From an uncultured bacterium (GTDB lineage: Bacteria; Patescibacteriota; Patescibacteriia; Magasanikbacterales; GWA2-37-8), in the NCBI GenBank assembly GCA_937903605.1, contig CALCZC010000028.1:6680-70679 (forward strand): 64,000 nucleotides of DNA, read 5' to 3'. The notes below the pieces were generated by a model. That model did no database searches. It was not told the origin of the DNA and worked only from the letters and a program-made list of their open reading frames with translations. How positions within the stretch are numbered: the first letter of the stretch is position 1; every line of letters starts with the position of its first letter. Below are positions 1 through 60,472 of this stretch, piece by piece. The translations under genes were made by a program, and so were the position numbers.

Positions 1-260
1 ATAAAACAAAAAGACCTACGGCCAAAAGAGCTTTTTTAGCAGAACAGCGTCTTGATTCGGATTTAGAACCGTTTGTCAAAGATTTGTTGATTGCAGAAAA
101 TTGGTATCGGGGTAATAACTATGAAGCAGCCAAAACATCTTTGGAATCGTTGTACAAAGAATGGATAAATTTACCCAGTGACGAAAAAGAACAAACTGTA
201 AATAGACAAAAAGAAGAAATTGTTAATCGAGCAAACACAAAGATCAATCAAACATATTAA
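1..260 (+). CDS. Hypothetical protein, C-terminal fragment; 5' end lies outside the window
   Basis: Frame is open from position 3 to a TAA stop at 258-260. No recognisable motif. Confidence 0.3.
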   Translation, partial: KTKRPTAKRAFLAEQRLDSDLEPFVKDLLIAENWYRGNNYEAAKTSLESLYKEWINLPSDEKEQTVNRQKEEIVNRANTKINQTY

Positions 261-270
261 GAAAAAAATT

Positions 271-714
271 ATGAAATTATTTAGAAAAAAATTTTTGTGG
301 ATATTGTTGATTGTCGCAGTATTTGTTCCCCTAAGTTTTGTTCAAGCTCAGACTTGGACAAAAATTTATCCAAAATGTATCCAATCTCAAATGACGGCGA
401 CAGGTCCTTGGAAATCAGACCCGGCCTGCGATGATCTGGGTGTTTTTATTGAATTGGCGATAAATATCGGGGCTTACATGTTTACATTTATTGGTGCGTT
501 GGCTCTATTGGTTTTTGTTTATGGTGGTTTTAAAATGATTATTTCTGCCGGAGATTCGGCAAAAATAAAAGAAGGTAAAGATGCTATGGTAGCTGCGGTT
601 ATCGGAATAATCATAGCATTTTCTGGTGTGGCGATAGTAAAATTTTTAGGTGATAGTTTACAACTGAAAGCTGAATATAGATTGGTACAGCCACCAACTA
701 CAACGCCAAATTAA
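271..714 (+). CDS. Pilin-like small secreted two-helix protein, paralog 1 (VirB2/TrbC-like 'T4SS pilin' type as annotated in CPR genomes)
   Basis: ATG at 271 follows an A-rich region. Has an N-terminal signal/TM segment and the conserved core VYGGFKMIISAGDSAKIKEGKDAM between two hydrophobic helices, a pattern shared with the 11 neighbours. Confidence 0.6.
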   Translation: MKLFRKKFLWILLIVAVFVPLSFVQAQTWTKIYPKCIQSQMTATGPWKSDPACDDLGVFIELAINIGAYMFTFIGALALLVFVYGGFKMIISAGDSAKIKEGKDAMVAAVIGIIIAFSGVAIVKFLGDSLQLKAEYRLVQPPTTTPN

Positions 715-720
715 TTTTAT

Positions 721-1083
721 ATGAAAAAAATTTTTTATTTTATATTATCTTTTTTATTATTAAGAGCCGATAATGTTTTTGCGGAAACAACTTCTGTCTA
801 CACCACAGAATCTCTTAAAAATAAGGCTACCACCAATCTTAATCCCGGTAATATCTGGAACACAGAAGATTTGTTGAGCCGAGGAATAAACGCCATGGTG
901 ATGTTTATGGGCTCTATCGCTTTGATTTTGATAGTTTATGCTGGTTTTTTGTGGATGACGGCGGGGGGAAATGATAGTAGGATAAGTAAGGCGCGAACGA
1001 TTATGATCTGGACCCTACTTGGCACGGTGGCTATAGGCGCAAGTTATGTTTTTGTGAAATTTGTTATAAATATTTTTGGTTAA
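721..1083 (+). CDS. Pilin-like protein, paralog 2
   Basis: Signal peptide. Core YAGFLWMTAGGNDSRISKARTIM, then a second hydrophobic helix. Confidence 0.65.
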   Translation: MKKIFYFILSFLLLRADNVFAETTSVYTTESLKNKATTNLNPGNIWNTEDLLSRGINAMVMFMGSIALILIVYAGFLWMTAGGNDSRISKARTIMIWTLLGTVAIGASYVFVKFVINIFG

Positions 1084-1103
1084 TAAAATTACCAAATTAA
1101 GAT

Positions 1104-1454
1104 ATGAAAAAATTTTTTTTATTTTTATTTATTTGTGCGATTTTTATTTTGACACCATCCTTTTCTTTGGCACAGGAGGTTGTTACATTGGAAAATCCTA
1201 TTCAAGATAAGTTTGCTACCGACGATCCGGCGGTTTTGATAGGTTATGTTATCAAAACTTTACTTGGTGTGGTTGGCGGGGTTTCGTTGTTAGTAATGGT
1301 TTATGGGGGATTCCAATGGCTTACGGCAGCGGGAAATGAAGATAAAATAAAAAAAGGAACCCAAACTATGCTTTGGTCGGCTATTGGACTAATTTTGGTT
1401 TTTTCCAGCTATTTATTAGTAGACACAATTTTTGGATTTTTTACTCCTAGATAA
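1104..1454 (+). CDS. Pilin-like protein, paralog 3
   Basis: Signal peptide. Core VYGGFQWLTAAGNEDKIKKGTQTM. Confidence 0.65.
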   Translation: MKKFFLFLFICAIFILTPSFSLAQEVVTLENPIQDKFATDDPAVLIGYVIKTLLGVVGGVSLLVMVYGGFQWLTAAGNEDKIKKGTQTMLWSAIGLILVFSSYLLVDTIFGFFTPR

Positions 1455-1525
1455 GTTGAAAAAAAACAATAAATAAAGTAAAATAAAAGTATGAAGAAAA
1501 TAAACTATAGAAGGGGGGTGAATAT

Positions 1526-1948
1526 ATGAAAAAAATAGTAAATTTAATATTAATGCTGACAATTTTGTTAAACGGTGTTTTGTTCGCTGTTTCAACAGTA
1601 TCAGCTCAAGCTTTGGAGACAAAAGATTTGATTAAAACAGACACTCTTGATCAAACAGGTTTAAAACAAGCAGATTTGCCATCTGTAATTGCTCAAATTA
1701 TCCGTACTGCCATGGGCTTGCTTGGTATCGTCGCTGTAGTCATCATTCTTATTGGTGGTTTTTATTGGATGACAGCCGGAGGGGACGAAGGACGTGTAGA
1801 AACCGGTAAAAAATGGATTTTTTCCGGGATTATCGGTTTGGCGATTATCTTGTCCGCTTATGCTTTAGCCACTTTTGTTATCAATTCCTTGACAGACGCT
1901 ATCGATGTAAGTGAACCAGTTGCCATTGGTTATGTTTTGAATGTATAG
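1526..1948 (+). CDS. Pilin-like protein, paralog 4
   Basis: RBS GGGGGG precedes the ATG. Signal peptide. Core IGGFYWMTAGGDEGRVETGKKWI. Confidence 0.65.
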   Translation: MKKIVNLILMLTILLNGVLFAVSTVSAQALETKDLIKTDTLDQTGLKQADLPSVIAQIIRTAMGLLGIVAVVIILIGGFYWMTAGGDEGRVETGKKWIFSGIIGLAIILSAYALATFVINSLTDAIDVSEPVAIGYVLNV

Positions 1949-2031
1949 TTTTTTTTCAAAGGGGGTTCGCGCGCGCAACCCCCTTTGAAAAATTGCTTTT
2001 TGCTGATAATTTTTTGTCATCAAAAAACAAT

Positions 2032-2421
2032 ATGAAAAAAAATAAAAAAATATTATTAGTAATAATGACCTTTGTTTTAATGGTACCGTTTTTGTTGTCT
2101 GCGGCGGAAAAACCTGATAAATACGGCGCTTATAATGTTTTTCATAATAGCCTTTTGTCAACTATTGGGATTGCTAATACAGGGGACGATCCCCTGGTTA
2201 TTGTTAATAAAATTGTTAATTTAATTTTGGGTTTTATCGGGATTGTTTTATTTGGGCTTATGCTTTATGCCGGGTTTACTTGGATCAAATCGCGGGGAAA
2301 TACCAATGAAGTAGATAGAGCTAAAAATATTATTGAAAATTGTTTATATGGTATATTGATAATCGTGTTGGCTTATGGTATTTCGGAATTTATTTTCAAT
2401 ATTCTCATAGGACTTGGTTAA
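2032..2421 (+). CDS. Pilin-like protein, paralog 5
   Basis: Internal ATG at 2032 (MKKNKKILL) is chosen because it precedes the signal peptide. Core YAGFTWIKSRGNTNEVDRAKNII. Confidence 0.6.
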   Translation: MKKNKKILLVIMTFVLMVPFLLSAAEKPDKYGAYNVFHNSLLSTIGIANTGDDPLVIVNKIVNLILGFIGIVLFGLMLYAGFTWIKSRGNTNEVDRAKNIIENCLYGILIIVLAYGISEFIFNILIGLG

Positions 2422-2428
2422 TTTAAAT

Positions 2429-2944
2429 ATGCGTAAAATAATAATTTTTTTAAGTTTTGTTTTATTACTTAGCGCCACGGCTGTTTGGGCGCAAAAATGG
2501 GGTTTGGATACAGCTGGAGAAACATCGGGTTTAAAAGATACTGCTATTGCTAAAACAGGAAGTATACCATCAGCTGTCGGTATAGTTTTGGGACAAGCTG
2601 TTTTATATTTAGGTATTATCTTTTTTCTCTTGATAGTTTATGCCGGATTTCTATGGATGACAGCCGGAGGAAATGATAAAAAAGTAGAGGAAGGTAAACA
2701 GATTTTGATCGCTGCGGTAACTGGTTTGGTAATAGTAATTTCCGCTTATGCGATAACCAGATTTGTTTTTGGTGAAGTTTTGAGTGTAAGTGTAAAAAAA
2801 TGTACCACAATCGAACAAAAAGCAAAATTTGCCGCTTGTCAGGATAAAAACACCCAAGCATGTATTTTTGAAGGAATAAAAGGAAATTACGAGCCTGGGC
2901 TTTGTGATGGAGGAATTAATATTCAGTGTTGTATAGTTAGATAG
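2429..2944 (+). CDS. Pilin-like protein, paralog 6, with a C-terminal 6-Cys module (C..C..C..C..CC)
   Basis: Core YAGFLWMTAGGNDKKVEEGKQIL. C-terminus KKCTTIEQKAKFAACQDKNTQACIFEGIKGNYEPGLCDGGINIQCCIVR. Confidence 0.65.
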   Translation: MRKIIIFLSFVLLLSATAVWAQKWGLDTAGETSGLKDTAIAKTGSIPSAVGIVLGQAVLYLGIIFFLLIVYAGFLWMTAGGNDKKVEEGKQILIAAVTGLVIVISAYAITRFVFGEVLSVSVKKCTTIEQKAKFAACQDKNTQACIFEGIKGNYEPGLCDGGINIQCCIVR

Positions 2945-2969
2945 AAATAAAATTAATTTTATTTAAATT

Positions 2970-3473
2970 ATGAAAAAAATCTTTATTTTATTTTTGATTG
3001 TCGGATCCTTAACTAGCTCTCTTGTTTTAGCTCAAGGTTTTGGTGAAGATAAATTACAAAATATAGCCCAAAAAGCAAACTTAGACACTGATCCGTTGGA
3101 TACTAGGGTAGGGAGTATCATTGCCGGTATTTTAGGACTTCTTGGGACAGTATTTTTGGTTTTGACTATTTACGCCGGAGTTTTATGGATGACAGCCAGT
3201 GGCGAGGAAGCCAAAATAGAAAAAGCCAAAGACATTCTCAAAGCTGCGATTATTGGCCTGGCAATTGTAATGTCTGCTTACACAATTACTTATTTTGTGG
3301 GAAATAGATTAGGGGCTTCAGGCGGTTCTGATCAAAATACTATAGGGTGTTGTATATTGATAGCACCAGATGGCACAAAAAGATATTCTCCATCTTCTAA
3401 ACAAGGATGTGTAAATCCTGATCCTTCCGCGTTGTCAACCGATTGGGTTTCTGGTAGTTGTCCTTCACCATAA
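2970..3473 (+). CDS. Pilin-like protein, paralog 7, with a Cys-containing C-terminal extension
   Basis: Core YAGVLWMTASGEEAKIEKAKDIL. C-terminus GCCILIAPDGTKRYSPSSKQGCVNPDP...SGSCPSP. Confidence 0.65.
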   Translation: MKKIFILFLIVGSLTSSLVLAQGFGEDKLQNIAQKANLDTDPLDTRVGSIIAGILGLLGTVFLVLTIYAGVLWMTASGEEAKIEKAKDILKAAIIGLAIVMSAYTITYFVGNRLGASGGSDQNTIGCCILIAPDGTKRYSPSSKQGCVNPDPSALSTDWVSGSCPSP

Positions 3474-3481
3474 TAAAAAAT

Positions 3482-3862
3482 ATGAGAACAAATATTAAAA
3501 AAATTTTTTTTATATTAAATATATTTATTTTAGTAGTTCTATCTTTATTTTTTTGTGGAAAAGCTTTGGCTGAAGAAAAACCTTCTTTTAATACGTCAAA
3601 AACCAAAATGCAGATGTTTGCCATAGATTTAAATTTTAGTAATTTTGATAAATCTGCAGAAAATATTATTAAACAAGTTATGTTTTTGGTAAATAGTTTA
3701 TTTTTTATCTTTATGATTTATGCGGGCATACTATGGCTGAGTTCTTCCGGAGAAGAAGCAAAAATAACTAAAGCCAAAACTATTATTATTTGGTGTGCCA
3801 TAGGTATGGTGGTAACTTTGAGTGCTTACTCCATAACAGCTTTTGTCTTGAGTAAACTTTGA
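3482..3862 (+). CDS. Pilin-like protein, paralog 8
   Basis: Start at internal ATG 3482 (MRTNIKKIFF). Core YAGILWLSSSGEEAKITKAKTII. Confidence 0.6.
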   Translation: MRTNIKKIFFILNIFILVVLSLFFCGKALAEEKPSFNTSKTKMQMFAIDLNFSNFDKSAENIIKQVMFLVNSLFFIFMIYAGILWLSSSGEEAKITKAKTIIIWCAIGMVVTLSAYSITAFVLSKL

Positions 3863-3869
3863 TTTAAAT

Positions 3870-4256
3870 ATGCTTAAGAAATTTATAATTCTAACTATCT
3901 TTGGCGGTTTATTTATTCCAACACTTTTTTGTTTTGCTCAGGATCCACTCCAAAATATTGCCAATGAAGCCGGTTATAAAACAGAGGGTGTTACCGAATA
4001 TTCTTTTTCCGAAACAGTCGGTACTTATATAAAAGGCATTTTAGTGATACTAGGAGTAATATTTTTTGTTTTAACTTTTTATGCCGGATTTTTATGGTTG
4101 ACAGCCAGTGGAGATGAAAGCAAAGTGGATACGGCAAAAAAAATTATTACCGGCGCCACGATTGGGCTAATAATAATTGTTATTTCTTACGGAATTACAT
4201 CTTTTGTTTTAACTAATATTCAAAAAACTGCGCAATTGCAAAAAATAGGTAAATAA
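3870..4256 (+). CDS. Pilin-like protein, paralog 9
   Basis: Core YAGFLWLTASGDESKVDTAKKII. Confidence 0.65.
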   Translation: MLKKFIILTIFGGLFIPTLFCFAQDPLQNIANEAGYKTEGVTEYSFSETVGTYIKGILVILGVIFFVLTFYAGFLWLTASGDESKVDTAKKIITGATIGLIIIVISYGITSFVLTNIQKTAQLQKIGK

Positions 4257-4261
4257 TTTAT

Positions 4262-4906
4262 ATGTCAAAGAAAATTTTAATTTTATTTTTATTATCCGTT
4301 TTTTGTTTTGCTGGTGCGGTTTGGGCTCAACCAAATATTGGTTTGGATACAGCCAGTAATATAGCCGCGCAAAGTGGATTGCCGATTTCCGGAGCTTCAG
4401 AAACAGGCTTGGCAGAAACAATTGGTAGATATATCAACATATTGCTTGGTTTTACAGGGATGATTTTTATGGTTTTGACATTATATGCCGGTTATTTATG
4501 GATGTTTGGCGGTGGTAATGAAGAAAACATTGCTCAAGCCAAAAAAACAATCACTTCTTCAATTATTGGGTTGGCAGTAATTTTACTTTCTTATAGCATA
4601 ACCGCATTGATAATGTGGGCGGTGGCCGGCACCACTAAACCAGAGCCTTATGGAGAATTGGAATTGACTGGCCCCAGCACATATACAGGTTGTTGTTTTG
4701 TAGCAACACCAGGGTGTACTAAAACACTGGGCGTTGGAAGGGCGGAATACACGGTTCCTTGTGGTAAGTGTCGTGAAAATATGGGATCAAGAGATTGTAG
4801 TGGAGATACAGGTAAACCAAAGGGCAAATGGTTTACTGATGGCTGCACCAAAGCTCAAAATGACAATGATTTTATTTGCACAGATTATGAGTTTAGCTCG
4901 ATTTAA
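4262..4906 (+). CDS. Pilin-like protein, paralog 10, with a ~90-aa C-terminal extension containing 10 Cys
   Basis: Core YAGYLWMFGGGNEENIAQAKKTI. C-terminus GCCFVATPGCTKTLG...PCGKCRENMGSRDCSG...GCTKAQNDNDFICTDYEF. Confidence 0.65.
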   Translation: MSKKILILFLLSVFCFAGAVWAQPNIGLDTASNIAAQSGLPISGASETGLAETIGRYINILLGFTGMIFMVLTLYAGYLWMFGGGNEENIAQAKKTITSSIIGLAVILLSYSITALIMWAVAGTTKPEPYGELELTGPSTYTGCCFVATPGCTKTLGVGRAEYTVPCGKCRENMGSRDCSGDTGKPKGKWFTDGCTKAQNDNDFICTDYEFSSI

Positions 4907-4934
4907 TAAATAATGAAATATTTTAAAAACCATT

Positions 4935-5330
4935 ATGTTTAAAAAAATAATTTTGATTGGCCTATTTACCCCTTTGCTTATTGGCAGTTTTGAATTTTGT
5001 GTTGCGCAAAGTGAAATGGAAAAACAACTTCAAGCCGCAGCCGGAGAAAAAGGAGCCGGATTTGAGAAGGCGGTAGATCCGTGGGATATGGTTTTTTTGG
5101 TTATTCGTTATGCTTTGAGTTTTTTGGGTTTTGTGTTTGTCCTTTTGACCATATATGCCGGAGCTTTATGGATGTTTTCAGGCGGTGAAGAAAATAAAAT
5201 AGAAACAGCCAAGAGTATTTTGACTGCCTCGGTTATTGGAGTATTAATAATTTTACTTTCTTATTCAATTACTTTTTTTGTTTTTAAACTATTTTTACTT
5301 GACGGGGCGACTTTTAGGATGCGTAAATAA
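4935..5330 (+). CDS. Pilin-like protein, paralog 11
   Basis: Core YAGALWMFSGGEENKIETAKSIL. Confidence 0.65.
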   Translation: MFKKIILIGLFTPLLIGSFEFCVAQSEMEKQLQAAAGEKGAGFEKAVDPWDMVFLVIRYALSFLGFVFVLLTIYAGALWMFSGGEENKIETAKSILTASVIGVLIILLSYSITFFVFKLFLLDGATFRMRK

Positions 5331-5364
5331 AATCAAGATAAAAATAACTCCGATTTGTTCGGGG

Positions 5365-6447
5365 TTATTTTTTTATAGCTAAAGAAAGTATTTGAGAATT
5401 GGGAAGATTATCGGATCTGTTTTTTGTTTTTTCTATTTTTAACAATTCTGAAATTTGTTTAGATATGTTTTTTTCTTCTATTTTAATTGCTAAATTATTT
5501 TTTAAAAAGTATTTTTCATTCAGTTCTTCTTGTCCGGGAATTGATTTTGACAAAATTATTTTTTTATTCAAATAAGCGCATTCGGTTAAAGTCAGTCCGC
5601 CTGGTTTGGTGATGATAATATCAGAAACCGCCATTAAATCTTCTATTTTTTCCACAAATTCAAATACTTGATAATTATAAAATCTCTCGTTTTTAAGTGA
5701 TAAATATCTTTTTACCAGTTTTTTATTACCTTTTCCGGCAATAACCAACAAATTTAAATCAGGAAAATTTTTAAGTATTTTTTTTATTAAAAATTTTTGA
5801 TTTTTTATCCCGAATCCGCCTGACATTATCAAAACAGTCTGATTTTTTGGATCTACGCCATATTTTGATTTTAAAAATTCAATATTTTTCTCTTCAAAAA
5901 AGGCCGGATTAATTGGTAAGCCGGTATTAAAGGAATTTAGTCCGTTAGCAGTTAAAGTGTCGGTTATTTGTTGATTGGCGGTATAAAAATTTCTTATTTT
6001 TGGACTTAGCCAAAAACCATGAAGCCCATAATCCGTAATAACCATATCTACAGGTAAATCGGGAAAATTTTTTTTGATCATAGCAGGAATCAGAAAGTGG
6101 GTGGCTATTATCAAATCTGGATCATAATTTTTTATGAACGCTTGGAGTTTTGGACTATTCAAGGCAAAAAGACCGGAAAGTTTTTCTATCAAAATAGCGG
6201 TTTTTGGAGAATCGGTAAATTTATAGGCTAGACGATAAATAAAAGGAATATATCTTACTAGGAAATGATAAGCTTGCGCTGTATGTAAATTCAAAAATTT
6301 AGTGGAGTAATCCAAAATATCAATATGTTGAGATTTAATGTCAGGATATTCTTTTTGACAGCTCAAAAAAAGAGCTTGGGCCGCTCGTTTGTGGCCAGCA
6401 CCAGCAGACATGGATAAAAACAATATTTTTTGGATTGGCTTGTTCAT
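5365..6447 (-). CDS. Glycosyltransferase family 28, MGDG synthase / UgtP-type diacylglycerol glycosyltransferase-like
   Basis: N-terminus ILFLSMSAGAGHKRAAQAL matches the MGDG-synthase N-terminal motif. C-terminal half resembles the GT28 C-terminal domain (GGFG, nucleotide-sugar binding). Confidence 0.6.
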   Translation of the reverse strand: MNKPIQKILFLSMSAGAGHKRAAQALFLSCQKEYPDIKSQHIDILDYSTKFLNLHTAQAYHFLVRYIPFIYRLAYKFTDSPKTAILIEKLSGLFALNSPKLQAFIKNYDPDLIIATHFLIPAMIKKNFPDLPVDMVITDYGLHGFWLSPKIRNFYTANQQITDTLTANGLNSFNTGLPINPAFFEEKNIEFLKSKYGVDPKNQTVLIMSGGFGIKNQKFLIKKILKNFPDLNLLVIAGKGNKKLVKRYLSLKNERFYNYQVFEFVEKIEDLMAVSDIIITKPGGLTLTECAYLNKKIILSKSIPGQEELNEKYFLKNNLAIKIEEKNISKQISELLKIEKTKNRSDNLPNSQILSLAIKK

Positions 6448-6538
6448 GATTTAAGTATAGGGGTAAAAGATGTTTTTTGTAAAGAAGAAAAAATATTAAT
6501 AAAAAAACACTTCTTTTTATAGAAGTATTTTTTGTATT

Positions 6539-6614
6539 TGGGGTGGCTATCGGGAATTGAACCCGAATTATCGGTACCACAAACCGATGTAATAACCATT
6601 ATACCATAGCCACC
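6539..6614 (-). tRNA. tRNA-His (anticodon GTG)
   Basis: Cloverleaf can be drawn. G-1 pairs with C73 as in tRNA-His. Anticodon loop TTGTGGT. T-loop GGTTCAATTCC. CCA is encoded. Confidence 0.8.
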
Positions 6615-7023
6615 GTTTAACTAGACCACAGTCCGTCAGACTACAGACTACAAAATTCGAATCGTCGAAGTCTGTAGACCGTAGTCCGAAGTCCAATCTA
6701 TATTGAAATTTTACTAACACGTTTGCGTAAAATTTTGGTTTTTGTTTTCAAAATTTTACCAATTTTTGTGTTTTTTTTGCAGTGTTTTATGCGGGCTTTA
6801 TAGGCGCTGTTCATAAAATATACATTAAAATATTGAATTAATTATTATGCATTATAACAGAAAGTTTTTATTTTTCAAGCCCCCGGCTTCGCTAAAGCTA
6901 CGCCAGGCAAGCACCAGGCTTCGTTTAGGTTTCGCTAAAGTTACGCCGGACTATGCTAGGCAAGCTCTTTTTTATCGGGTTTCTTACAAGCTTTACTGCT
7001 TACTGGCTTACTAGCTTATTTTG

Positions 7024-7095
7024 TATCCCCAGTAGGAATCGAACCTACATATTCAGCTTAGAAGGCTGATGTTCTATCCATTGAACTATGGGGAC
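7024..7095 (-). tRNA. tRNA-Arg (anticodon TCT)
   Basis: Acceptor GTCCCCA/TGGGGAT. Anticodon loop CTTCTAA. T-arm GTAGGTTCGATTCCTAC. No CCA encoded. Confidence 0.75.
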
Positions 7096-7189
7096 AAAAA
7101 TTCACCAGCAACTATAACACGTTTTGCTTTAAAAATCAAGGTGTGATAAAATAAAAACAGCTTAAAAGTTCATTTATAAGCTTATTTAT

Positions 7190-7918
7190 ATGCATTTTGA
7201 AAATAAAAATTTTAAAAAAGTGTTTATTTTGGCAATTTTTGCTATTGTTCTTTGCGTGCCAATTTTTGTTTTTTCTCAAGGTTTTGGTCTGGAAGAAACA
7301 GCTGGCAAAGGTGGGTATGATACAGCGCCTAGAGATGTTTATTCCATGATAGGAAATATCACAAATGCAGCTTTTGCAACCGTTGCTTTTATCTTTTTTG
7401 CTTTGACAGTATATGCTGGATTACGTTGGATCACCGCTCGTGGAAAAGAAGACTTGATAGAGAAAGCTAAGAGTACAATGGAATCGGCGATTATCGGGTT
7501 GATTGTCGTGGCTTTATCTTATACAATTGCCAGTTTTGTAATAAATAGATTATCGCCACCAAAAACATCTACCACGGGAGGAACAACACAAAACCTTGCA
7601 ACAGACAAAGAGTGTACTGATAAAGGTGGTTTTTGTACAGCTGGAAGTTGTGTTTTTGGAGAAAAACCCGATGATGGTGTTAAATGTAAAGATGCGGGAT
7701 ATGTTTGTTGTGTTAAAGATATACCTAAACAACCAAAATATTCCGATTCAAAATATTGTTGTATAAAAAAGCAGAGTGACTCTACTAAAAACAAGTGTTG
7801 GCCTTTGAATAGTAATTCTACAGCTTCAATGTCTGATGAAGGAAGCAAATGTATTTATGAATATTATGGTTTTGTACAAAACGGTAGTTGTAACACGACA
7901 ATGTTTGGTTGCGAGTAG
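7190..7918 (+). CDS. Pilin-like protein, paralog 12, with a long cysteine-rich C-terminal extension
   Basis: Core YAGLRWITARGKEDLIEKAKSTM. C-terminus contains CTDKGGFCTAGSCVFGEKPDDGVKCKDAGYVCC plus a second Cys-rich block. Confidence 0.65.
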   Translation: MHFENKNFKKVFILAIFAIVLCVPIFVFSQGFGLEETAGKGGYDTAPRDVYSMIGNITNAAFATVAFIFFALTVYAGLRWITARGKEDLIEKAKSTMESAIIGLIVVALSYTIASFVINRLSPPKTSTTGGTTQNLATDKECTDKGGFCTAGSCVFGEKPDDGVKCKDAGYVCCVKDIPKQPKYSDSKYCCIKKQSDSTKNKCWPLNSNSTASMSDEGSKCIYEYYGFVQNGSCNTTMFGCE

Positions 7919-7925
7919 TCAATTC

Positions 7926-7954
7926 TTGACAAAACACTTTATTTCTGCTAATAT
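7926..7954 (+). promoter_or_regulatory. Sigma70-type promoter for rpsO
   Basis: TTGACA, 17-nt spacer, TAATAT. Confidence 0.45.
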
Positions 7955-8024
7955 CTCTTTATTATAACTTACTTAACCCGTTCGGGTCCCATACCCCAGA
8001 TCGCGGTTTTAAACAATATTTTGT

Positions 8025-8396
8025 ATGTTGGACAATAAAAAGAAACAGCAAATTATCAAAAAATTTGCTACCCACACCGGAGATACCGGAAGTTCTGAAG
8101 TGCAAATTGCCATTTTGACTCATGAAATTGAGGAATTGGCCTCTCACTTGAAAACTCATCCCAAAGACCATTCTTCTCGTCGTGGGTTGTTGCGTAAAGT
8201 TAGCGCTCGCCGTCGTCTTATCGCTTATTTGAAAAAAGACAATCCGGAAAGTTTTGAAGAACTGGCAAAAAAATTGAAACTTAAACAAGCCAGAGTTATC
8301 AAAAATCCAAACATCAAAGAAGAAGAAGTTTTGGACGAAGAAATTTTGGACGAAGAAATTGAAAAAGAATTAGAAAATGAAAAAGATTCTGAATAA
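8025..8396 (+). CDS. rpsO: 30S ribosomal protein S15, with a ~30-aa acidic C-terminal tail
   Basis: GDTGSSEVQIAILTHEIEELASHLKTHPKDHSSRRGLLRKVSARRRLIAYL is a classic S15 sequence. The tail is EEEVLDEEILDEEIEKELENEKDSE. Confidence 0.9.
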   Translation: MLDNKKKQQIIKKFATHTGDTGSSEVQIAILTHEIEELASHLKTHPKDHSSRRGLLRKVSARRRLIAYLKKDNPESFEELAKKLKLKQARVIKNPNIKEEEVLDEEILDEEIEKELENEKDSE

Positions 8397-12461: not shown

Positions 12462-15436
<2,975 letters not shown>

Positions 15437-15502
15437 AAAGCATTAAGTAGTGCTTTGAGTGTTCCAAAATATTCTTTTAAATAATTCAAATTTGAGTGTA
15501 GA

Positions 15503-15614
15503 GTTCAGGTGCTTTAAGCGAAGGGGTCACACCCGATCCCATCCCGAACTCGGTAGTTAAGCTCTTCTGCGCCGATGATAGCCCTAAAGGCAAAAGTAGG
15601 CCAGCGCCTGAACT
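15503..15614 (+). rRNA. rrf: 5S ribosomal RNA
   Basis: CCCGATCCCATCCCGAACTCGGTAGTTAAGC...GCGCCGATGATAG. Helix I closes with GTTCAGGTGC/GCGCCTGAAC. Confidence 0.85.
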
Positions 15615-49730: not shown

Positions 49731-49928
49731 CGATTATATTGTTTTGTTGTAAAAGTATCCAGTTTTAACTCTCAATGAGCCATCTTGTGGTCCTGAATCG
49801 AACCTGTTCTGGTTTAGGACCGCCACCAGGGCATTTTTATGTGTATAATTGTACCAAATTTTGATTTTTTGTCAAGCTTGTGATAAAATAAGTTCATCCA
49901 TAAAGAATTGGCTAATTTTAGACTATTT

Positions 49929-50717
49929 ATGTCAAAAGTCATTTCCGTAGTTAATCAAAAAGGTGGTGTGGGTAAAACCACCACAGCCGTGAATTTGGCT
50001 GCCGGGCTTGCTGAACTGGGCAAGTTTGTTTTGCTTGTAGATTTAGATCCGCAAGCTAATGCAACTTCTGGTTTAGGTGTTAATCATAACGAGCTTGAAA
50101 AAGGTTTATACCATGCTTTGATAAACGATCACCCGGTTCACGATGTAATAGTTGATTCTAAACACATTGGTTTGCGAATTTTACCAGCCACACAAGATTT
50201 AGCCGGAGCGAATGTGGAATTGGTAAATTTAGATAGGCGTGAATTTAAACTTGACGATCTTTTGGCACAAGCCAAACACGCTTATGATTATATTATCATT
50301 GACTGTCCGCCATCACTTGGTATTTTGACTCTCAATGGGTTGGTCGCCGCCGATCATATTCTTATTCCTGTACAAGCTGAGTACTATGCATTGGAAGGTT
50401 TGGGGCAACTTCTTAAAACCATAGCTTTGGTAAAAGAAAATGTTAAAGCTGAATTAAATGTTTTAGGAGCGGTTTTGACTATGTTTGATAGTCGCAATCG
50501 ATTGTCTGAGGAAGTTTTGCATGAATTGTATAAATATTTTCCTAACAATATTTTTCGTTCGGTTATTCCACGAACTGTTCGTTTGGCCGAGGCTCCTTCT
50601 TATGGTAAAAGCATTTTTCATTACGAACCCAGTGGTAAGGGAGCAAAAGCATATGAACGTTTAGCAAGAGAGTTTGTGGAGAGATTTGAAAATAATAATA
50701 ATTCAGATACAATTTAA
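49929..50717 (+). CDS. parA: Chromosome partitioning ATPase ParA/Soj
   Basis: MSKVISVVNQKGGVGKTTTAVNLAAGLA (deviant Walker A). Confidence 0.9.
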   Translation: MSKVISVVNQKGGVGKTTTAVNLAAGLAELGKFVLLVDLDPQANATSGLGVNHNELEKGLYHALINDHPVHDVIVDSKHIGLRILPATQDLAGANVELVNLDRREFKLDDLLAQAKHAYDYIIIDCPPSLGILTLNGLVAADHILIPVQAEYYALEGLGQLLKTIALVKENVKAELNVLGAVLTMFDSRNRLSEEVLHELYKYFPNNIFRSVIPRTVRLAEAPSYGKSIFHYEPSGKGAKAYERLAREFVERFENNNNSDTI

Positions 50718-50760
50718 TCTTTCAATCTTTAAATCTTTGAATCTTTTAAATTAATAATGT

Positions 50761-51678
50761 ATGTCTTTAGGCCGAGGTTTAGGCGCTTTAATTTCGTCTA
50801 ACAATAATATAAAAAAAGAACCGGTCGCCACAACTATTACTTCAAAAACAGGTAGTTTGGCTACCTTAGAAAAACCAATTAGCAAAAAAGAAGAAAAAAG
50901 TTCAGAAAATAATCTTTGGTTTATACCTGTAAGTAAGATTTTTAGTAATCCTAATCAACCGCGTAAAAATTTTAAACCGGAACTTTTAGACGAGCTTTCT
51001 GAAAGTATTAAAAAACATGGTGTTTTACAACCTCTTGTTTTATCAGAAAAATCAGATGGTAATTACGAGATTATTGCCGGAGAGCGTCGTTGGCGAGCCA
51101 GTAAATTGGCTGGTCTGGCTACCGTACCAGCTTTAGTAAAAGAATTTAAAGATCAAGAAAAATTAGAAGTGTCTCTGATAGAAAATGTACAACGAGCGGA
51201 CCTTAATCCTATTGAAGAAGCTTTTGCTTATAAACGACTGATGGAAGAGTTCGATTTGACCCAAGAAGAGGTAGCTGGCAGAGTAGGTAAGAGCCGTTCT
51301 TTTGTGGCAAATATCGTTCGTTTATTGGATCTGCCGGAGAAAGTAAAAGAAGCCTTGATAGATGGTAAAATTAATACTGGACAAGCTAGAGCTTTGCTGT
51401 CCTTGCCTTCTGATAAAGAACGTTTGGAAATGTTATCTTCAATGTTGGGACAAAAGATTACTGTTCGTGAGTTGGAAAGAGAAGCGCAAAAAATAAGAAT
51501 TAAAAAAATTCCGATCAAACGTGATGCAAACCTTCTTTTTTTGGAAGAAAAATTACGAGAAGCACTTGGTACAAAAGTTTCTATTTCCGCTCGCGGGGAG
51601 TCTGGTAGTATAAATATTTCATATTACTCCAAAGAAGAATTAGTACAACTTATTCGTAAAATCACTGGATTGGAATAA
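50761..51678 (+). CDS. parB: Chromosome partitioning protein ParB/Spo0J
   Basis: ParB box GERRWRASKLAG and an HTH region. Confidence 0.9.
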   Translation: MSLGRGLGALISSNNNIKKEPVATTITSKTGSLATLEKPISKKEEKSSENNLWFIPVSKIFSNPNQPRKNFKPELLDELSESIKKHGVLQPLVLSEKSDGNYEIIAGERRWRASKLAGLATVPALVKEFKDQEKLEVSLIENVQRADLNPIEEAFAYKRLMEEFDLTQEEVAGRVGKSRSFVANIVRLLDLPEKVKEALIDGKINTGQARALLSLPSDKERLEMLSSMLGQKITVRELEREAQKIRIKKIPIKRDANLLFLEEKLREALGTKVSISARGESGSINISYYSKEELVQLIRKITGLE

Positions 51679-56126: not shown

Positions 56127-57956
56127 ATGTCCGAAAATCCAAATTTTCTCAAAAACAAATATAATCTTCACACCAGTGAGGAAGTTTTGCGTGCCAAAAA
56201 ACGCACAGAAAGTAAAACCGGAGAAAAGGTCAAAGAAGACCCGTCTTCGCTTATTCAAAATTATCTAAACCGTTTCAAAGAAATTACTGACCGCAAAGAC
56301 CCTACTGACAGAGAACAAGGTATAGAAGCTCTCAAACGCGTCCTTTATCGTGACAGTATTATCAAGCCCGAAGATATCCCACAGTCATATTGGGAAGCCC
56401 AAGCTCGTTTAGCTCGTGAACAAGGTCATGGCGATATTGAGATTACAGAGGAAATGAAAGACAGTGGTGCGGAAATACTTATCACTGATCAAAAAAGCAG
56501 TTTAGATACTTGGATTGATTATATGGCATCTCAAGATGCCACTTATCCAGACTGGCTTAAATATTTTGCCATTCGCAGTGTTTTGAATTTGGGCGAATAC
56601 GATAAAGAAAAAAAAGTTTTTTCCAAACGATCCAAAGGCACAGTCAAACCATTTCCCGACCTTAACCGTGAAGCTCTAGCTTACGTTTTGGATGCCGTGG
56701 AGAAAAAATATCAAAAGCAAGGTATTGATTTGGAAAATCTTAACGAAGAAGATAAAAAAACTTTTGATAAAATACTCAAAGAAGAAAATTTCGGCAAGCT
56801 TTACGCTTTTGCTATTGATAAAGTTACTCCGACCGAAGTTAATCTCTTAACTGTAACAGAAGGGCAATGGAAAAAATACGATAAAGACAGCGACCATATG
56901 CCTTTGGTAAAATCTCTGCAAGGACACGGCACCGGTTGGTGTACAGCCGGCGAAAGTACTGCTCAAACCCAGCTTCAAGGCGGAGACTTTTATGTTTATT
57001 ACTCTCTTGATAAAGACGACAAACCAACTATTCCTCGTGCCGCAATCAGAATGCAAGAAAACAAAATTGCCGAGGTTCGTGGAATAGGGCCTGACCAAAA
57101 TCTTGATCCCTACATTGGCGAAGTGGTTAAACAAAAAATGACTGAATTTTCTGATGGACAACTTTATGAGAAAAAGGCGGGAGATATGAAATTCTTAACT
57201 CAAATAGACAAAAAAACCCAAAATCAAGAACCACTAACAAAAGAAGAACTAAATTTTCTTTATGAAGTAGATGAAAAAATACAAGGTTTTGGTTATAAAG
57301 ATGATCCAAGAGTAAAAGAAATCAGAAACCAAAGAAACCCGGAGCAAGATATGTCCATAATTTTTGATTGTACCCCTGACCAAATCGCCCACAATCAAAA
57401 AGAAGTGAACGAAAACACCAAAGCCTATGTTGGCGAACTATTTCCCAATATTTTTCAAACTCTCCAAACTGAACATATTTACACTGAATTTCCCGAAGGT
57501 AAAATCAGAAGATATAATATTGAAATTGGTGGCAAAAGCAAAAAAGAACTGGAAGTGGAAATGAAAAAACAAAAGATTACCATTAGTAGTTATGCGCAAG
57601 ATATGTTAAACAGTTCGGATTTCGCCACTTCAAAAAAAGCAGAAAGAGAAACCCTTATCCGTTTAAGAGTCGCTGATCTCAAAACAAAAAATCAAACCAC
57701 GGATGAAATATTTGCTAAAGCCAAAGAATTGGGCCTTGAACTCTGTCCTCCTGAAACCGGACCGCAATTTAGATTGCAAAACCCAACTCAAGAATATATT
57801 ATAATTGGAATGAAACAAATCGCCGACCGTTACGACTATCCGAGCGTGTTCAACTTGGACAGCGATAGCGATGGTCTGTGGCTCAACGGCATCATTGCCC
57901 GTCCTGGCCTCAGGTGGAATGATGACAGCAAGTTCGTTTTCCGTCTTCGTAAGTGA
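56127..57956 (+). CDS. DGR target (variable) protein, 609 aa, variable region at the extreme C-terminus; no obvious signal peptide
   Basis: C-terminal ...YPSVFNLDSDSDGLWLNGIIARPGLRWNDDSKFVFRLRK is encoded by the VR. Ends with TGA. Confidence 0.8.
   Translation: MSENPNFLKNKYNLHTSEEVLRAKKRTESKTGEKVKEDPSSLIQNYLNRFKEITDRKDPTDREQGIEALKRVLYRDSIIKPEDIPQSYWEAQARLAREQGHGDIEITEEMKDSGAEILITDQKSSLDTWIDYMASQDATYPDWLKYFAIRSVLNLGEYDKEKKVFSKRSKGTVKPFPDLNREALAYVLDAVEKKYQKQGIDLENLNEEDKKTFDKILKEENFGKLYAFAIDKVTPTEVNLLTVTEGQWKKYDKDSDHMPLVKSLQGHGTGWCTAGESTAQTQLQGGDFYVYYSLDKDDKPTIPRAAIRMQENKIAEVRGIGPDQNLDPYIGEVVKQKMTEFSDGQLYEKKAGDMKFLTQIDKKTQNQEPLTKEELNFLYEVDEKIQGFGYKDDPRVKEIRNQRNPEQDMSIIFDCTPDQIAHNQKEVNENTKAYVGELFPNIFQTLQTEHIYTEFPEGKIRRYNIEIGGKSKKELEVEMKKQKITISSYAQDMLNSSDFATSKKAERETLIRLRVADLKTKNQTTDEIFAKAKELGLELCPPETGPQFRLQNPTQEYIIIGMKQIADRYDYPSVFNLDSDSDGLWLNGIIARPGLRWNDDSKFVFRLRK
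57823..57953 (+). repeat. DGR variable repeat (VR)
   Basis: Aligns without gaps to 58254-58384. All 15 differences fall at positions where the TR has A (VR has G, T or C there). Confidence 0.9.
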
Positions 57957-58253
57957 TTTTTAAAAAATTTATAACTTTCGGTTACTTTGATTCTTTTGTT
58001 CTTGGATTCTTATAAAAAATTTGCTATAATTTAGTTAGTTTGATTATTTTGAAAGGTCATGGCTTTTCAACATCTCTCTGGCAATTGTAAATTGAGTTAT
58101 AAACGGTTACGGCTTTTTACAGAGTGATTTATATATTGTCTAACAAAAAGAAAACACTTGGTATGGAAAACTGGCGGATTTTAGATCCCAAATAAAATAC
58201 AGCCCAATGTTATTTTCACATAGGCAGTGTAATAGAAGGTTTTCCATATAAAA

Positions 58254-58384
58254 CCGACCGTAACGACAATCCGAACGTGTTCAACTTGAACAGCAATAGC
58301 GATGATCTGTGGCTCAACAACAACAATGCCCGTCCTGACAACAGGTGGAATGATGACAACAAGTTCGTTTTCCGTCTTCGAAAG
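58254..58384 (+). repeat. DGR template repeat (TR), non-coding, Asn-codon (AAC)-rich
   Basis: ...AACTTGAACAGCAATAGCGATGATCTGTGGCTCAACAACAACAATGCCCGTCCTGACAACAGGTGGAATGATGACAACAAG... Adenine-rich counterpart of the VR. Confidence 0.9.
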
Positions 58385-58401
58385 TTTTATCTTTTCCACG
58401 C

Positions 58402-58749
58402 CTACAAAGCGTGGTTTTTCTTTTCCGGATTGTTTAAACTATTTTTCCAACCGCCAAACATTTTCCCTATTTCTTCTATTTTAGAAGAAATTGTTTCATA
58501 GTGGGTGTGCGCGATAATTTTTCCTTCCCAAGCAGTGTAAATTAAAAATTTCAGAGTATCCAGTATTACTAAACAATTTGTTATTTTTTCCGCTTTATTT
58601 TCTTTATTGCTAAAATATGTCAAATAAGCAAGCTCCATCAAATCTAAAAATTTATTTTCAATTCGCGCGCCCAAGGTATAGCGTGTGCTTTTTTGCATAT
58701 GAATAGCGATATTAATCCACGACAAATAAAGTTCTTTGACCTTGTTCAA
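58402..58749 (-). CDS. avd: Avd-like accessory variability determinant (four-helix-bundle protein)
   Basis: ~100-115 aa. C-terminal KIEEIGKMFGGWKNS resembles Bordetella phage Avd ...IAEVGRILGSWIARV. Helical and basic. TTG start at 58749, or internal ATG (M17). Confidence 0.5.
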   Translation of the reverse strand: MNKVKELYLSWINIAIHMQKSTRYTLGARIENKFLDLMELAYLTYFSNKENKAEKITNCLVILDTLKFLIYTAWEGKIIAHTHYETISSKIEEIGKMFGGWKNSLNNPEKKNHAL

Positions 58750-58832
58750 GATAGAAGCGTTGTTGAAAGTGCGGGGGGGGGGGTAGAAGATGTGATCATA
58801 AATATAATGAAATTATTTCTAAAGGAAATTTA

Positions 58833-59783
58833 TTGGTTTCTTGGCAGGAATTTTTATCCGACAAGAAAGAACGTAAAGATATAGCCGAGTTTATGATCAA
58901 TTTCTCCGGTAATATTTCAAATTTGTGTAATGAATTAAAAGAAAAAACATATAAACATAATGATTATATTGCATTTAAAATAAACGATCCCAAACCGCGC
59001 GATATTCACAAAGCGAGTGTACGAGACAGGGTTGTCCATCACGCCATTTATAGAATTTTGTATCCGTATTTTGATAGACAGTTTATTTTTGATTCTTATT
59101 CCTGTCGGATTGATAAAGGAACACACCGGGCGATTGGTCGTTTTGAGAATTTTGCGCGAAAAGTTTCCTTAAACAGCAAGCGGACGGTTTGGGTTTTGAA
59201 ATGCGATATCAGAAAATTTTTTGCCAATATTGATCATCTTATTTTGAAAACAATATTAGACAAACATATTTTAGATAAAGATATTGTCTGGCTTTTATCG
59301 CAAATAATAGACAGTTTTAACACAGCGGGTAAAGAAAATGTCGGCTTGCCACTTGGAAATCTAACCTCTCAGCTTCTGGTTAATATTTACATGAACGAAT
59401 TTGATCAATTTGTTAAACGAAAATTAAAAATCAAATATTATGTTCGTTATGCCGATGATTTTATCATTTTACACGAAAATAAAAGTTTTTTACAGGATTT
59501 GATTTTGGAAATAAGCGAATTTTTGGAAACAAAATTGAAACTTTTATTACATCCAAAAAAAGTTAGTATAAAAACTTTCAATTCGGGTGTGGATTTTTTA
59601 GGTTGGGTCTGTTTTTCAAACCATAAAGTATTGCGGACAAAAACAAAGAGACGAATGTTTAAAAGAATAGAGAAACATAAAACTAAAGAAACATTGGCTT
59701 CATATTTGGGGATGTTGAGTCATGGAAATGCGTATAAATTGAGTAAGAAGATAAAATTTATAACTCCAACCCCGCTTGTTTAA
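58833..59783 (+). CDS. DGR reverse transcriptase; N-terminus unresolved (frame open from 58767, no in-frame ATG; possibly fused to ORF 58693 through the poly-G tract)
   Basis: RDRVVHHAI (RT motif 2 region), GLPLGNLTSQLLVNIYMNEFD (DGR-specific motif 4), YVRYADDFIIL (YxDD). Confidence 0.85.
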   Translation: MVSWQEFLSDKKERKDIAEFMINFSGNISNLCNELKEKTYKHNDYIAFKINDPKPRDIHKASVRDRVVHHAIYRILYPYFDRQFIFDSYSCRIDKGTHRAIGRFENFARKVSLNSKRTVWVLKCDIRKFFANIDHLILKTILDKHILDKDIVWLLSQIIDSFNTAGKENVGLPLGNLTSQLLVNIYMNEFDQFVKRKLKIKYYVRYADDFIILHENKSFLQDLILEISEFLETKLKLLLHPKKVSIKTFNSGVDFLGWVCFSNHKVLRTKTKRRMFKRIEKHKTKETLASYLGMLSHGNAYKLSKKIKFITPTPLV

Positions 59784-59851
59784 AAGTGCCATGGTATTTT
59801 ATTTTACAAAAGCTGATTTTAATGATAAAATTTTTGCATTATTTATCAAAT

Positions 59852-60472
59852 ATGAATATTTACCTTGACGAATCATACAATTTACAAAAAACAAGAGGTA
59901 AAATGTTTGTCAGTATCAACGGTTTTGCTGTTTTTGACGACCGACTATTGAGAAAACGTTGGAAAATTGTAAGAAAGGATTATGTACGATCAAAAAGACG
60001 TGTTCATGCGACCGACTCTTATTTTGAAGAATTAAGAAAAAAAAGTTTGAAGTTATTAAACAGAAATGATATTAGCGTTTTTTCGGTATTCCAAGTAATT
60101 CAGGAATTGCCGTATGATTATTTTGATAAAGAGGGCATAAAGTTTGATTTTTTGTATGCCTCTTTACTGAAAAAGTTGTTTGTGGAAATGTCCTTGGGAG
60201 AGTATAAAAAAATAAGAATATTTATAGATGCCAGAAAACACAAAGGTGGAAAATTGGGAGAAAAAAAGTTTCAAAAAGAGATTGAAGATTTTTTAAAAAA
60301 TAAATTTTTCAACACCGTTTGTATTTACAAAGCCACCCCGTCATATTTGGATGTTTTGGTTGAATTATCCGATTTTGTTTCTAATACTTTTTATAGGGAA
60401 TATCAAAATAATTCTACGCATGTATTTAAAGATGCCGGCATTAGATTTATACAAATCAAAAATCCGCTGTGA
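59852..60472 (+). CDS. DUF3800-family protein
   Basis: N-terminal MNIYLDESYN matches the DUF3800 IY(I/L)DES signature. Confidence 0.5.
   Translation: MNIYLDESYNLQKTRGKMFVSINGFAVFDDRLLRKRWKIVRKDYVRSKRRVHATDSYFEELRKKSLKLLNRNDISVFSVFQVIQELPYDYFDKEGIKFDFLYASLLKKLFVEMSLGEYKKIRIFIDARKHKGGKLGEKKFQKEIEDFLKNKFFNTVCIYKATPSYLDVLVELSDFVSNTFYREYQNNSTHVFKDAGIRFIQIKNPL

Follow-up and report, generated by a model that had tools for sequence, protein, structure and literature searches.

Twelve VirB2-like pilin paralogs in a conserved tandem array of an uncultured Magasanikbacterales bacterium

We analysed a stretch of 64,000 nucleotides (the 64-kb window, to which positions refer unless another locus is named) from contig CALCZC010000028.1 of an uncultured bacterium of the Magasanikbacterales (GCA_937903605.1), and we describe here a tandem array of twelve pilin-like genes at its left end. 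Patescibacteria, the group of ultra-small bacteria to which this organism belongs, account for a large part of bacterial diversity, and they live on the host cells to which they attach. The source contig (ENA ERZ724078 NODE_54, 212.7 kb) allowed the flanks to be read ~9 kb to the left and ~8.5 kb to the right of the window, and among named homologues, those nearest to the pilins and to a neighbouring RadA come from Candidatus Magasanikbacteria and "Patescibacteria group" metagenome-assembled genomes. An initial annotation, made from the letters of the window by themselves, had proposed twelve co-oriented open reading frames (ORFs), and both the ORF listing of the window and the shared alignment of their products confirmed them: all lie on the forward strand and have ATG starts, eleven are contiguous (271–5330) and the twelfth stands apart (7190–7918). 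They are numbered pil1 to pil12 in array order (Table 1). The spacers between the pilin genes are short and the arrangement is tandem, as annotated, although they measure 5–83 nt rather than 5–70 nt. Promoter and terminator scans of positions 1–8100 did no better than shuffled sequence (41 vs 31 ± 6 promoters, and 5 vs 5.9 terminators), so that the operon structure is read here from gene spacing.

All twelve products share a common architecture, consisting of a Sec signal peptide, a variable segment, a first helix with YAGFLWM at its end, a short basic loop, a second helix and a tail. The variable N-terminal segment spans 23–37 residues (about 40 had been proposed), and the tail ranges from 2 to 123 residues. 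Pairwise identity averages 28% (range 18–42%), rising to 33% within the core and falling to 21% in the remainder. A core is indeed shared, but its earlier description as invariant was overstated, since strict invariance in the 12-paralog alignment is limited to three Gly and one Lys (a Tyr, a Trp and a second Tyr are ≥90% conserved). At the DNA level, an 82-nt repeat family (61–72% identity) covers the core in 11 of the 12 genes. The resemblance among the members of the array is far above chance. A hidden Markov model (HMM) built from the twelve, which is circular for those twelve themselves (E-values in Table 1), found no further match among ORFs translated from all six frames of the window, where the next best hit had E = 0.15.

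Signal peptides, called from sequence features, were recognised in every paralog by an n-region rich in K/R, followed by a hydrophobic h-region and by small residues at −3/−1; the residue at +1 after the predicted cleavage is Gln in nine and Glu in three. The N-terminal segments are acidic or neutral, and each of the twelve has two hydrophobic helices joined by a 15-residue loop with 2–4 K/R. For mature pil3, AlphaFold2 predicted a helical hairpin (residues 19–51 and 56–90) with a pLDDT of 83 that exceeds 90 within both helices. The signal peptide and two-helix topology suggested at the outset is thus supported by these features and by the predicted hairpin.

Family membership was judged against the gathering scores of PF18895 (T4SS_pilin; T4SS, type IV secretion system; 26.6 bits) and PF04956 (TrbC/VirB2; 27.9 bits). 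PF18895 matched all of the paralogs, ten above its gathering score (30.2–44.6 bits), and the two that fall below it (pil2 and pil11) still align across the full core with every motif. Of a family set of 113 sequences (the twelve plus database homologues), 112 matched PF18895. The profile search therefore bears out the proposed T4SS-pilin membership, and the locus is securely identified as a VirB2-like T4SS_pilin array. The narrower assignment to the TrbC/VirB2 type holds in part, as a remote link suggested by weak but consistently positioned matches: PF04956 is matched at E < 0.01 by 19 of the 113 family members (best 2e-8), and hhalign of the family profile with Agrobacterium VirB2 (recovered from PDB 8cue and verified against 8cue/8fai) gave P = 4.6e-4 at a probability of 33%, in an alignment that covers the mature N-terminus, helix 1 and the G-x-x-W-M motif. 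TrbC/VirB2 pilins polymerise with phospholipid into an extracellular tube, and some members are N–C cyclised. In NCBIfam scanned at a loose threshold (E-values up to 1), the best match for pil1–pil10 was NF045849 (Mbov_0395), with 10.5–32.8 bits that all lie below the cutoff of 40, and neither pil11 nor pil12 had an NCBIfam match at E < 0.001. A motif check found the class III prepilin motif G↓F/M-x-x-x-E (N_methyl, TIGR02532 type) in none of the twelve. A phage or holin origin was considered separately and rejected, as a PHROGs search with the pilins returned no matches.

The array is not particular to this genome. The same order, comprising a gene for a substrate-binding protein (SBP), eleven pilin genes and an opposite-strand gene for a family 28 glycosyltransferase (GT28), was found in four other species (L008, GCA_036744835.1; L009; L010; L011). 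Where the contig continues (L008 and L010), the tRNA genes and pil12 follow the GT28 gene, in L008 also the genes for S15, an NYN-domain protein and PNPase; a further locus (L014) shows the same 11 + 1 arrangement and spacing of pilin ORFs. In each species, the best match of a window paralog is the gene at the same position, and this holds for every paralog present. Identity between pilin orthologs is 52–78%, compared with 84–99% for GalU, S15, NYN and PNPase, and pil8 forms the fastest-evolving ortholog group (55–58%). Codon-level comparison (Nei-Gojobori, pooled over all twelve ortholog groups) gave dN/dS values that are approximate because dS is near saturation (pS 0.5–0.66): 0.48 for the signal peptide, 0.24 for the N-terminal segment, 0.09 for TM1 (the first transmembrane helix), 0.10 for the loop, 0.12 for TM2 and 0.27 for the tail. 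The exposed segments thus change ~2.5x faster than the core, which agrees with the expectation that N-terminal segments and tails are the faster-evolving parts, and dN/dS stays below 1 in every region. In a strain comparison, five of six other contigs were 100% identical and the sixth (L005; 98.3–98.5%) had too few changes for a selection test. As judged from these sequence comparisons, the array is an ancient fixed set under purifying selection. Its 1:1 positional retention together with this selection argues for paralogs that are fixed, non-redundant parts, and against a repertoire with fast turnover.

One member of the array stands out by its predicted translation signal. The Shine-Dalgarno (SD)-like motif AAGGGGGGTGA, which ends 4 nt 5' of the pil4 ATG, pairs with CACCUCCUUU at a duplex energy of −15.0 kcal/mol, compared with a median of 0.1 kcal/mol over 66 window genes and −7.8 kcal/mol for the next best gene after pil4; these energies assume a canonical anti-SD, with the 16S rRNA outside the window. 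The window genes are essentially without SD motifs, those for ribosomal proteins, EF-Tu and EF-G included, and pil4 is the sole strong exception. It also has the widest unstructured spacer of the array (pil3–pil4, 71 nt, A-rich). The motif is kept before pil4 in all five species, and the other eleven paralogs are without it. We extended the comparison to 13 further loci drawn from a genome collection by a scan seeded with the pil4 ortholog alignment (the full 12-paralog alignment was too divergent as a seed), and found one pilin gene per array with a near-perfect SD (−12.8 to −16.6 kcal/mol), mostly the pil4-type match; among neighbouring non-pilin ORFs, 0/108 reach −15 and 2/108 reach −12. 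The pil4 core is also exceptionally stable, with ~60 consecutive residues over both helices and the loop identical in five species (ortholog identity of 0.94 in TM1, 1.00 in the loop and 0.95 in TM2), and its conservation exceeds that of PNPase. Because of this invariant core and the only strong SD, pil4 is probably the major and abundant subunit, and the other eleven are probably accessory.

We note that the differences of strain L005 cluster in the pil3–pil4 spacer and the pil4 signal peptide (1455–1573), including a 6-nt insertion that leaves the SD motif itself intact, and that mostly third-position changes form a second patch, in an upstream PilX-like gene.

Between species, change in the array concentrates in the tails. 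All six tail Cys of pil6 are kept in five species, and the Cys patterns of the pil6 and pil10 tails are conserved, whereas those of pil1, pil7 and pil12 are swapped, gained or lost: pil1 orthologs have tails with 0, 2 or 4 Cys, and the pil12 tail is unlike those of the L008 and L010 orthologs and found only 3 representatives at E < 1e-3 among 1.84 billion in an exhaustive search. In five of the twelve paralogs the tail has ≤6 residues. Given the predicted topology, the tails would be extracellular. The number of Cys is even in the tailed paralogs, and this, together with a DsbA-like gene near a related gene that joins a pilin to an SLT (lytic transglycosylase) domain, would fit disulfide bonding of the tails.

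Taken together, we consider it fairly probable that the twelve are Sec-exported VirB2/TrbC-like pilins that are used jointly as subunits of one surface filament or stalk. Each preprotein would be cleaved after an AxA-type site (+1 Gln or Glu), and the mature protein would insert as a hairpin with its basic loop in the cytoplasm and its N-terminal segment and C-terminal tail outside the cell. The twelve would most likely form one co-expressed operon and act together instead of alternating, considering the spacers of 5–83 nt on one strand, the 1:1 orthologs, the lack of near-identical DNA between paralogs and the core dN/dS of 0.09–0.12. As the literature and the topology suggest, the filament or stalk might be built by a patescibacterial T4SS encoded elsewhere in the genome, with pil4 as the abundant major subunit, the other eleven as low-abundance accessory subunits, and the exposed N-terminal segments and disulfide-rich tails conferring contact specificity towards the host cell. 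The division into major and minor subunits is the best-supported mechanism, and we hold it with moderate confidence.

Several points weigh against this explanation, in addition to the approximate dN/dS values and the assumed anti-SD mentioned above. To our knowledge, no patescibacterial T4SS pilus has been observed experimentally. None of the twelve reaches the gathering score of PF04956 (the best are pil3 with 22.3 bits, E = 1.6e-4, and pil4 with 18.4), the 12-paralog profile found no pilin among PDB sequences but noise only, and fold searches with the hairpin are non-discriminating, since thousands of unrelated structures match. No VirB4, VirB6 or VirB3 was found in the window, in the ~9 kb to its left or in the ~8.5 kb to its right; the absence of VirB4, VirB6 and VirD4 from the window had been stated from the start, and a Pfam scan of every ORF ≥500 aa and of most ORFs ≥200 aa agreed. 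Finally, relatives fuse the pilin hairpin to SLT or to extensions of >3,400 aa, and such fusions are easier to reconcile with a membrane anchor than with a packed filament subunit.

This last point leads to an alternative that we regard as unlikely, namely that the hairpin stays in the cytoplasmic membrane and tethers extracellular peptides or domains for display. The cargo in relatives is varied (SLT in L013, the ORFs of 3,459–3,536 aa in L027, L029 and L033), there can be two or three hairpins per polypeptide (P0003, P0014, P0021, P0087 and P0110), and tail length within this array alone ranges as widely as given above. However, pil4, which is the most conserved and apparently the most translated member, carries no cargo at all, and five of the twelve have tails of ≤6 residues. 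In conservation the loop motif equals the helices, which points to a shared assembly interface and not mere anchoring, and arrays of this kind are T4SS-linked and essential in Saccharibacteria (PMC10633639).

With regard to the unusual fusions themselves, the giant ORFs (L027 9896–20275, L029 9707–20317 and L033 9719–20326) have an N-terminal T4SS_pilin domain and run off the locus, and each is preceded by a ~700-aa pilin-domain protein. The proteins with repeated hairpins (P0003, P0004 and P0014; P0021, P0087 and P0110) contain either two (pil1-like, Cys-rich linker, pil2-like) or three in tandem.

A repertoire for antigenic or host-range variation appears more doubtful still. Under this explanation, which the initial annotation implied when it called the array a diversifying multigene family and for which PMC12102498 offers an analogy, the paralogs would be interchangeable major pilins, expressed few at a time or quickly turned over, that evade host defences or match different hosts. 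The low identity among paralogs (mean 28%), the faster change of the exposed segments and the tails that differ between species would all be expected of such a repertoire. Against it, paralog number, order and identity are fixed in at least five species, each pilin gene of the array having its 1:1 ortholog in at least four others, and dN/dS is below 1 everywhere. A repeat search of the array found no long near-identical DNA between paralogs, no gene-conversion tracts and no switching repeats, and the tight co-oriented operon is without invertible elements or silent cassettes. The single SD-led member fits unequal fixed roles. The description as a diversifying family was therefore not upheld: what change there is concentrates in the gain, loss and swapping of cysteine-rich tails, and the exposed parts evolve faster while remaining under purifying selection.

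Table 1 Pilin-like genes, their tails and neighbouring features (window positions; PF18895 and PF04956 scores in bits).
Feature	Position	Strand	Description
pil1	271-714	+	147 aa; signal peptide 26 aa; PF18895 30.3; 2 conserved Cys in exposed N-terminal segment; tail short in window copy
pil2	721-1083	+	120 aa, minimal pilin; PF18895 21.7 (< gathering score); array's own HMM E = 2e-43
pil3	1104-1454	+	116 aa, minimal pilin; PF18895 40
SD-like motif AAGGGGGGTGA	1511-1521	+	4 nt 5' of pil4 ATG
pil4	1526-1948	+	140 aa; PF18895 43.4; PF04956 18.4
pil5	2032-2421	+	129 aa; PF18895 32.3
pil6	2429-2944	+	171 aa; PF18895 31.3
pil6 tail	2774-2941	+	56 residues, 6 Cys (C-x11-C-x6-C-x13-C-x7-CC)
pil7	2970-3473	+	167 aa; PF18895 44.6
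pil7 tail	3306-3470	+	55 residues, 4 Cys; replaced or absent in orthologs
pil8	3482-3862	+	126 aa; PF18895 30.2
pil9	3870-4256	+	128 aa; PF18895 33.8
pil10	4262-4906	+	214 aa
pil10 tail	4619-4903	+	95 residues, 8 conserved Cys; small beta-rich domain
pil11	4935-5330	+	131 aa; PF18895 19.2 (< gathering score); array's own HMM E = 4e-45
pil12	7190-7918	+	242 aa; PF18895 35.2
pil12 tail	7547-7915	+	123 residues, 12 Cys; nearly orphan sequence
SBP (SBP_bac_1/8, sugar-type), 3' end	1-260	+	frame-3 translation; full gene 463 aa
UgtP-like GT28 (MGDG_synth + Glyco_tran_28_C)	5365-6447	-	Pfam; convergent with pil11
tRNA-His (GTG)	6539-6613	-	ARAGORN + Rfam
tRNA-Arg (TCT)	7023-7095	-	ARAGORN + Rfam

The genes that frame the array are also conserved. 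The SBP gene directly precedes it (NCBIfam matches to GanS/MalE are weak) and is itself immediately preceded by a gene for GalU (TIGR01099, 335.6 bits; cutoff 326.8). An SBP gene likewise lies directly 5' of the pilin arrays in at least ten other loci, including arrays of 6–8 genes. On the other side, the best NCBIfam match of the GT28 is diglucosyl-diacylglycerol synthase (171 bits; the equivalog cutoff is 500), and this gene is at the same position in L008–L011 and in the more distant L049. In the latter, a distant Magasanikbacteria locus, the order GalU, SBP, array and UgtP-like glycosyltransferase is kept despite differing outer flanks. That the pilins are instead small membrane proteins unrelated to T4SS (accessories of SBP-dependent uptake, or holin-like proteins of phage type) whose pilin likeness is convergent would fit the SBP gene placed before the array in many lineages, the lack of T4SS genes nearby and the indiscriminate hairpin fold, but we hold it to be very improbable in view of the curated and significant PF18895 matches, the bridging TrbC matches among relatives (down to 2e-8), the absence of an ABC permease or ATPase beside the SBP gene in the source-contig gene calls, and Sec signal peptides that are atypical for holins.

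Under the favoured reading of a jointly used filament, these sugar-related neighbours suggest a glucose-derived lipid or glycan as a partner for the array. Conjugative pili are co-polymers of pilin and phospholipid, and by that analogy a link between a glucolipid and pilin assembly is conceivable, although we offer it as speculation. A fuller and more tentative version, to which we give a rather low probability, would be a monoderm T4SS-type filament with division of labour: an SD-driven pil4 polymer, eleven fixed minor pilins with swappable disulfide-rich adhesins, a glucolipid from the GalU/UgtP-like enzymes that is co-assembled or serves in modification, and an unlinked ATPase.

As to where the remaining T4SS components might be encoded, genes for RecG, RadA and a 462-aa pilin-domain protein, the nearest related gene, lie about 8.5 kb beyond the right end of the window, and T4SS loci of ABY1 have been published as lying near radA and recG, which matches this neighbourhood. 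In L013, a relative with 90% identity in RadA, that protein is a fusion of T4SS_pilin with SLT (VirB1-like). Within 10 kb of RadA in a more distant genome (L048), no VirB4 was found. In a Saccharibacteria relative, the pilin array adjoins a VirB4-like ATPase. We also note that the pilin-domain protein adjacent to RadA/RecG (462–513 aa; L012 1–1529, L013 1022–3206 and L048 7762–9983) is found beside a DsbA-like Thioredoxin_4 protein.

VirB2-like pilin arrays of Patescibacteria have already been described (PMC12102498, PMC10633639, PMC12857230). Quiñonero-Coronel et al. (2025, Microb Genom, PMC12102498) reported VirB2-like pilins in 1,948 assemblies and 441 arrays of 2–11 pilins, with an average identity of 25% and a maximum of 54%, and drew the analogy of antigenic variation with the VirB2 paralogs of Bartonella and Anaplasma; in Southlakia epibionticum, the single species tested, Wang et al. 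(2023, Cell, PMC10633639) found a series of predicted pilins in a T4SS cluster that is essential for epibiotic growth, the array included. A 2025 review restates the array findings and raises, as speculation, the idea of a monoderm pilus. The present locus, with its 11 contiguous genes plus one, falls under the array definition of PMC12102498 (at least two PF18895/PF04956 genes, in tandem or with one non-pilin gene between them), and its divergence (mean 28%, range 18–42%) agrees with that reported there. It is a further example of the published array type, with a size at the upper end of the reported range or slightly beyond it. Like the published arrays, it consists of tandem co-oriented PF18895/PF04956-type genes in the chromosome of a member of the candidate phyla radiation, with paralogs ~25–28% identical, a non-pilin gene that may interrupt the series and no relaxase nearby. 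It differs by its twelve members (11 + 1, compared with 2–11), by its ABY1/Magasanikbacteria-type host (the published arrays were reported as most abundant in Microgenomatia and Saccharimonadia) and by not lying beside virB4. In term searches of PMC12102498 and PMC10633639, we found neither fixed orthology, a single SD-led member, Cys-rich tails nor the frame of GalU, SBP and UgtP-like genes.

Similarities to better-known systems are partial. The diderm VirB2/TrbC/TraA pilins (PF04956; 8cue, 8fai, 8exh) share the signal peptide, a mature length of ~70–110 aa, two hydrophobic helices and a short basic loop, and the G-x-x-W-M motif that ends helix 1 aligns with IGISWMFG of VirB2. In contrast, the proteins described here have longer N-terminal segments, many have Cys-rich C-terminal domains, the host is monoderm, and there are twelve paralogs instead of one, which are not encoded beside virB3/virB4 and fall short of the PF04956 score. 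The Mbov_0395/MMCAP2_0565 proteins of integrative and conjugative elements in Mycoplasma (NF045849) are likewise small, two-helix and pilin-like and come from a wall-less or monoderm lineage, but they are encoded by a single-copy element gene and not by a chromosomal array, and all our scores were below 40. In Bartonella and Anaplasma, several divergent tandem VirB2 copies are proposed to vary the exposed surface; their linkage is to a canonical virB operon and they are read as antigenic variation, whereas here the copies are ancient, keep a fixed order and evolve under purifying selection. Type IV pilus sets (PilA with FimU/PilVWX; ComG) offer the parallel of one abundant major and several minor subunits in an operon, and genuine type IV pseudopilin genes lie just upstream of our array, but the fold and the signal are different, as the absence of G↓FxxxE from all twelve indicates. 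These two pseudopilin-like genes are upstream of GalU (L002 3125–4915 and 5679–7148, 4–6 kb left of the window) and encode proteins of 596 aa with a prepilin N_methyl domain and of 489 aa with a weak PilX_N match, so that genes for two kinds of pilin are neighbours here.

The locus leaves the catalogue of known systems unchanged but supplies handles that can be tested. These include a candidate major subunit, marked by an invariant core and a lone SD in an otherwise SD-less genome (a pattern that recurs in the 13 further loci); evidence for fixed non-redundant paralogs over a variation repertoire; cysteine-rich tails as candidate modules of host specificity, which in a term search were not mentioned in PMC12102498 or PMC10633639; and a conserved frame of sugar/glycolipid genes. 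Expression studies, cryo-electron tomography and structural analysis of what has been proposed as the first 'Gram-positive' conjugative-type pilus could take these handles as a guide.

Some observations concern other parts of these genomes. In other ABY1-type genomes, the arrays of 6–8 genes are followed on their 3' side (L019 11455–17032, L030 11297–16460 and similar loci) by three conserved proteins in which neither a Pfam match nor a Walker A motif was found: the first (548–599 aa) has 7–9 transmembrane helices and an N-terminal 'ADPDAFYH' motif and is possibly GT-C-like, the second is soluble (351–369 aa), and the third (705–756 aa) again has 7–9 transmembrane helices. The remainder of our window is mainly housekeeping, with genes for S15, an NYN-domain protein, PNPase, 23S and 5S rRNA, aldolase, GlmS, EF-G, EF-Tu, a ribosomal-protein cluster, SecY, RecO, ParA, ParB, RelA/SpoT, TopA, DprA, Pth and Der. 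The 23S and 5S rRNA genes (12462–15612) are preceded by tRNA-Leu and PNPase, and since the window has no 16S rRNA gene, the rRNA operon appears to be unlinked. The genes parA/parB (49908–51678) are ~45 kb from the array, and cumulative GC skew shows a monotonic rise over the whole window; both are compatible with the published origin-proximal placement of patescibacterial T4SS genes.

Lastly, a diversity-generating retroelement occupies positions 56127–60472. Its target ORF (609 aa, 56127–57956; no Pfam match) carries a variable repeat at the 3' end (57823–57954) that is 89% identical to a 132-nt template repeat (58254–58385), and all 15 mismatches are at template adenines. A bAvd gene is called between the target and the reverse transcriptase (58833–59783), which is followed by a DUF3800-like ORF (59786–60472). 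The element looks inserted at this site, because DprA directly abuts TopA in the relative L048.

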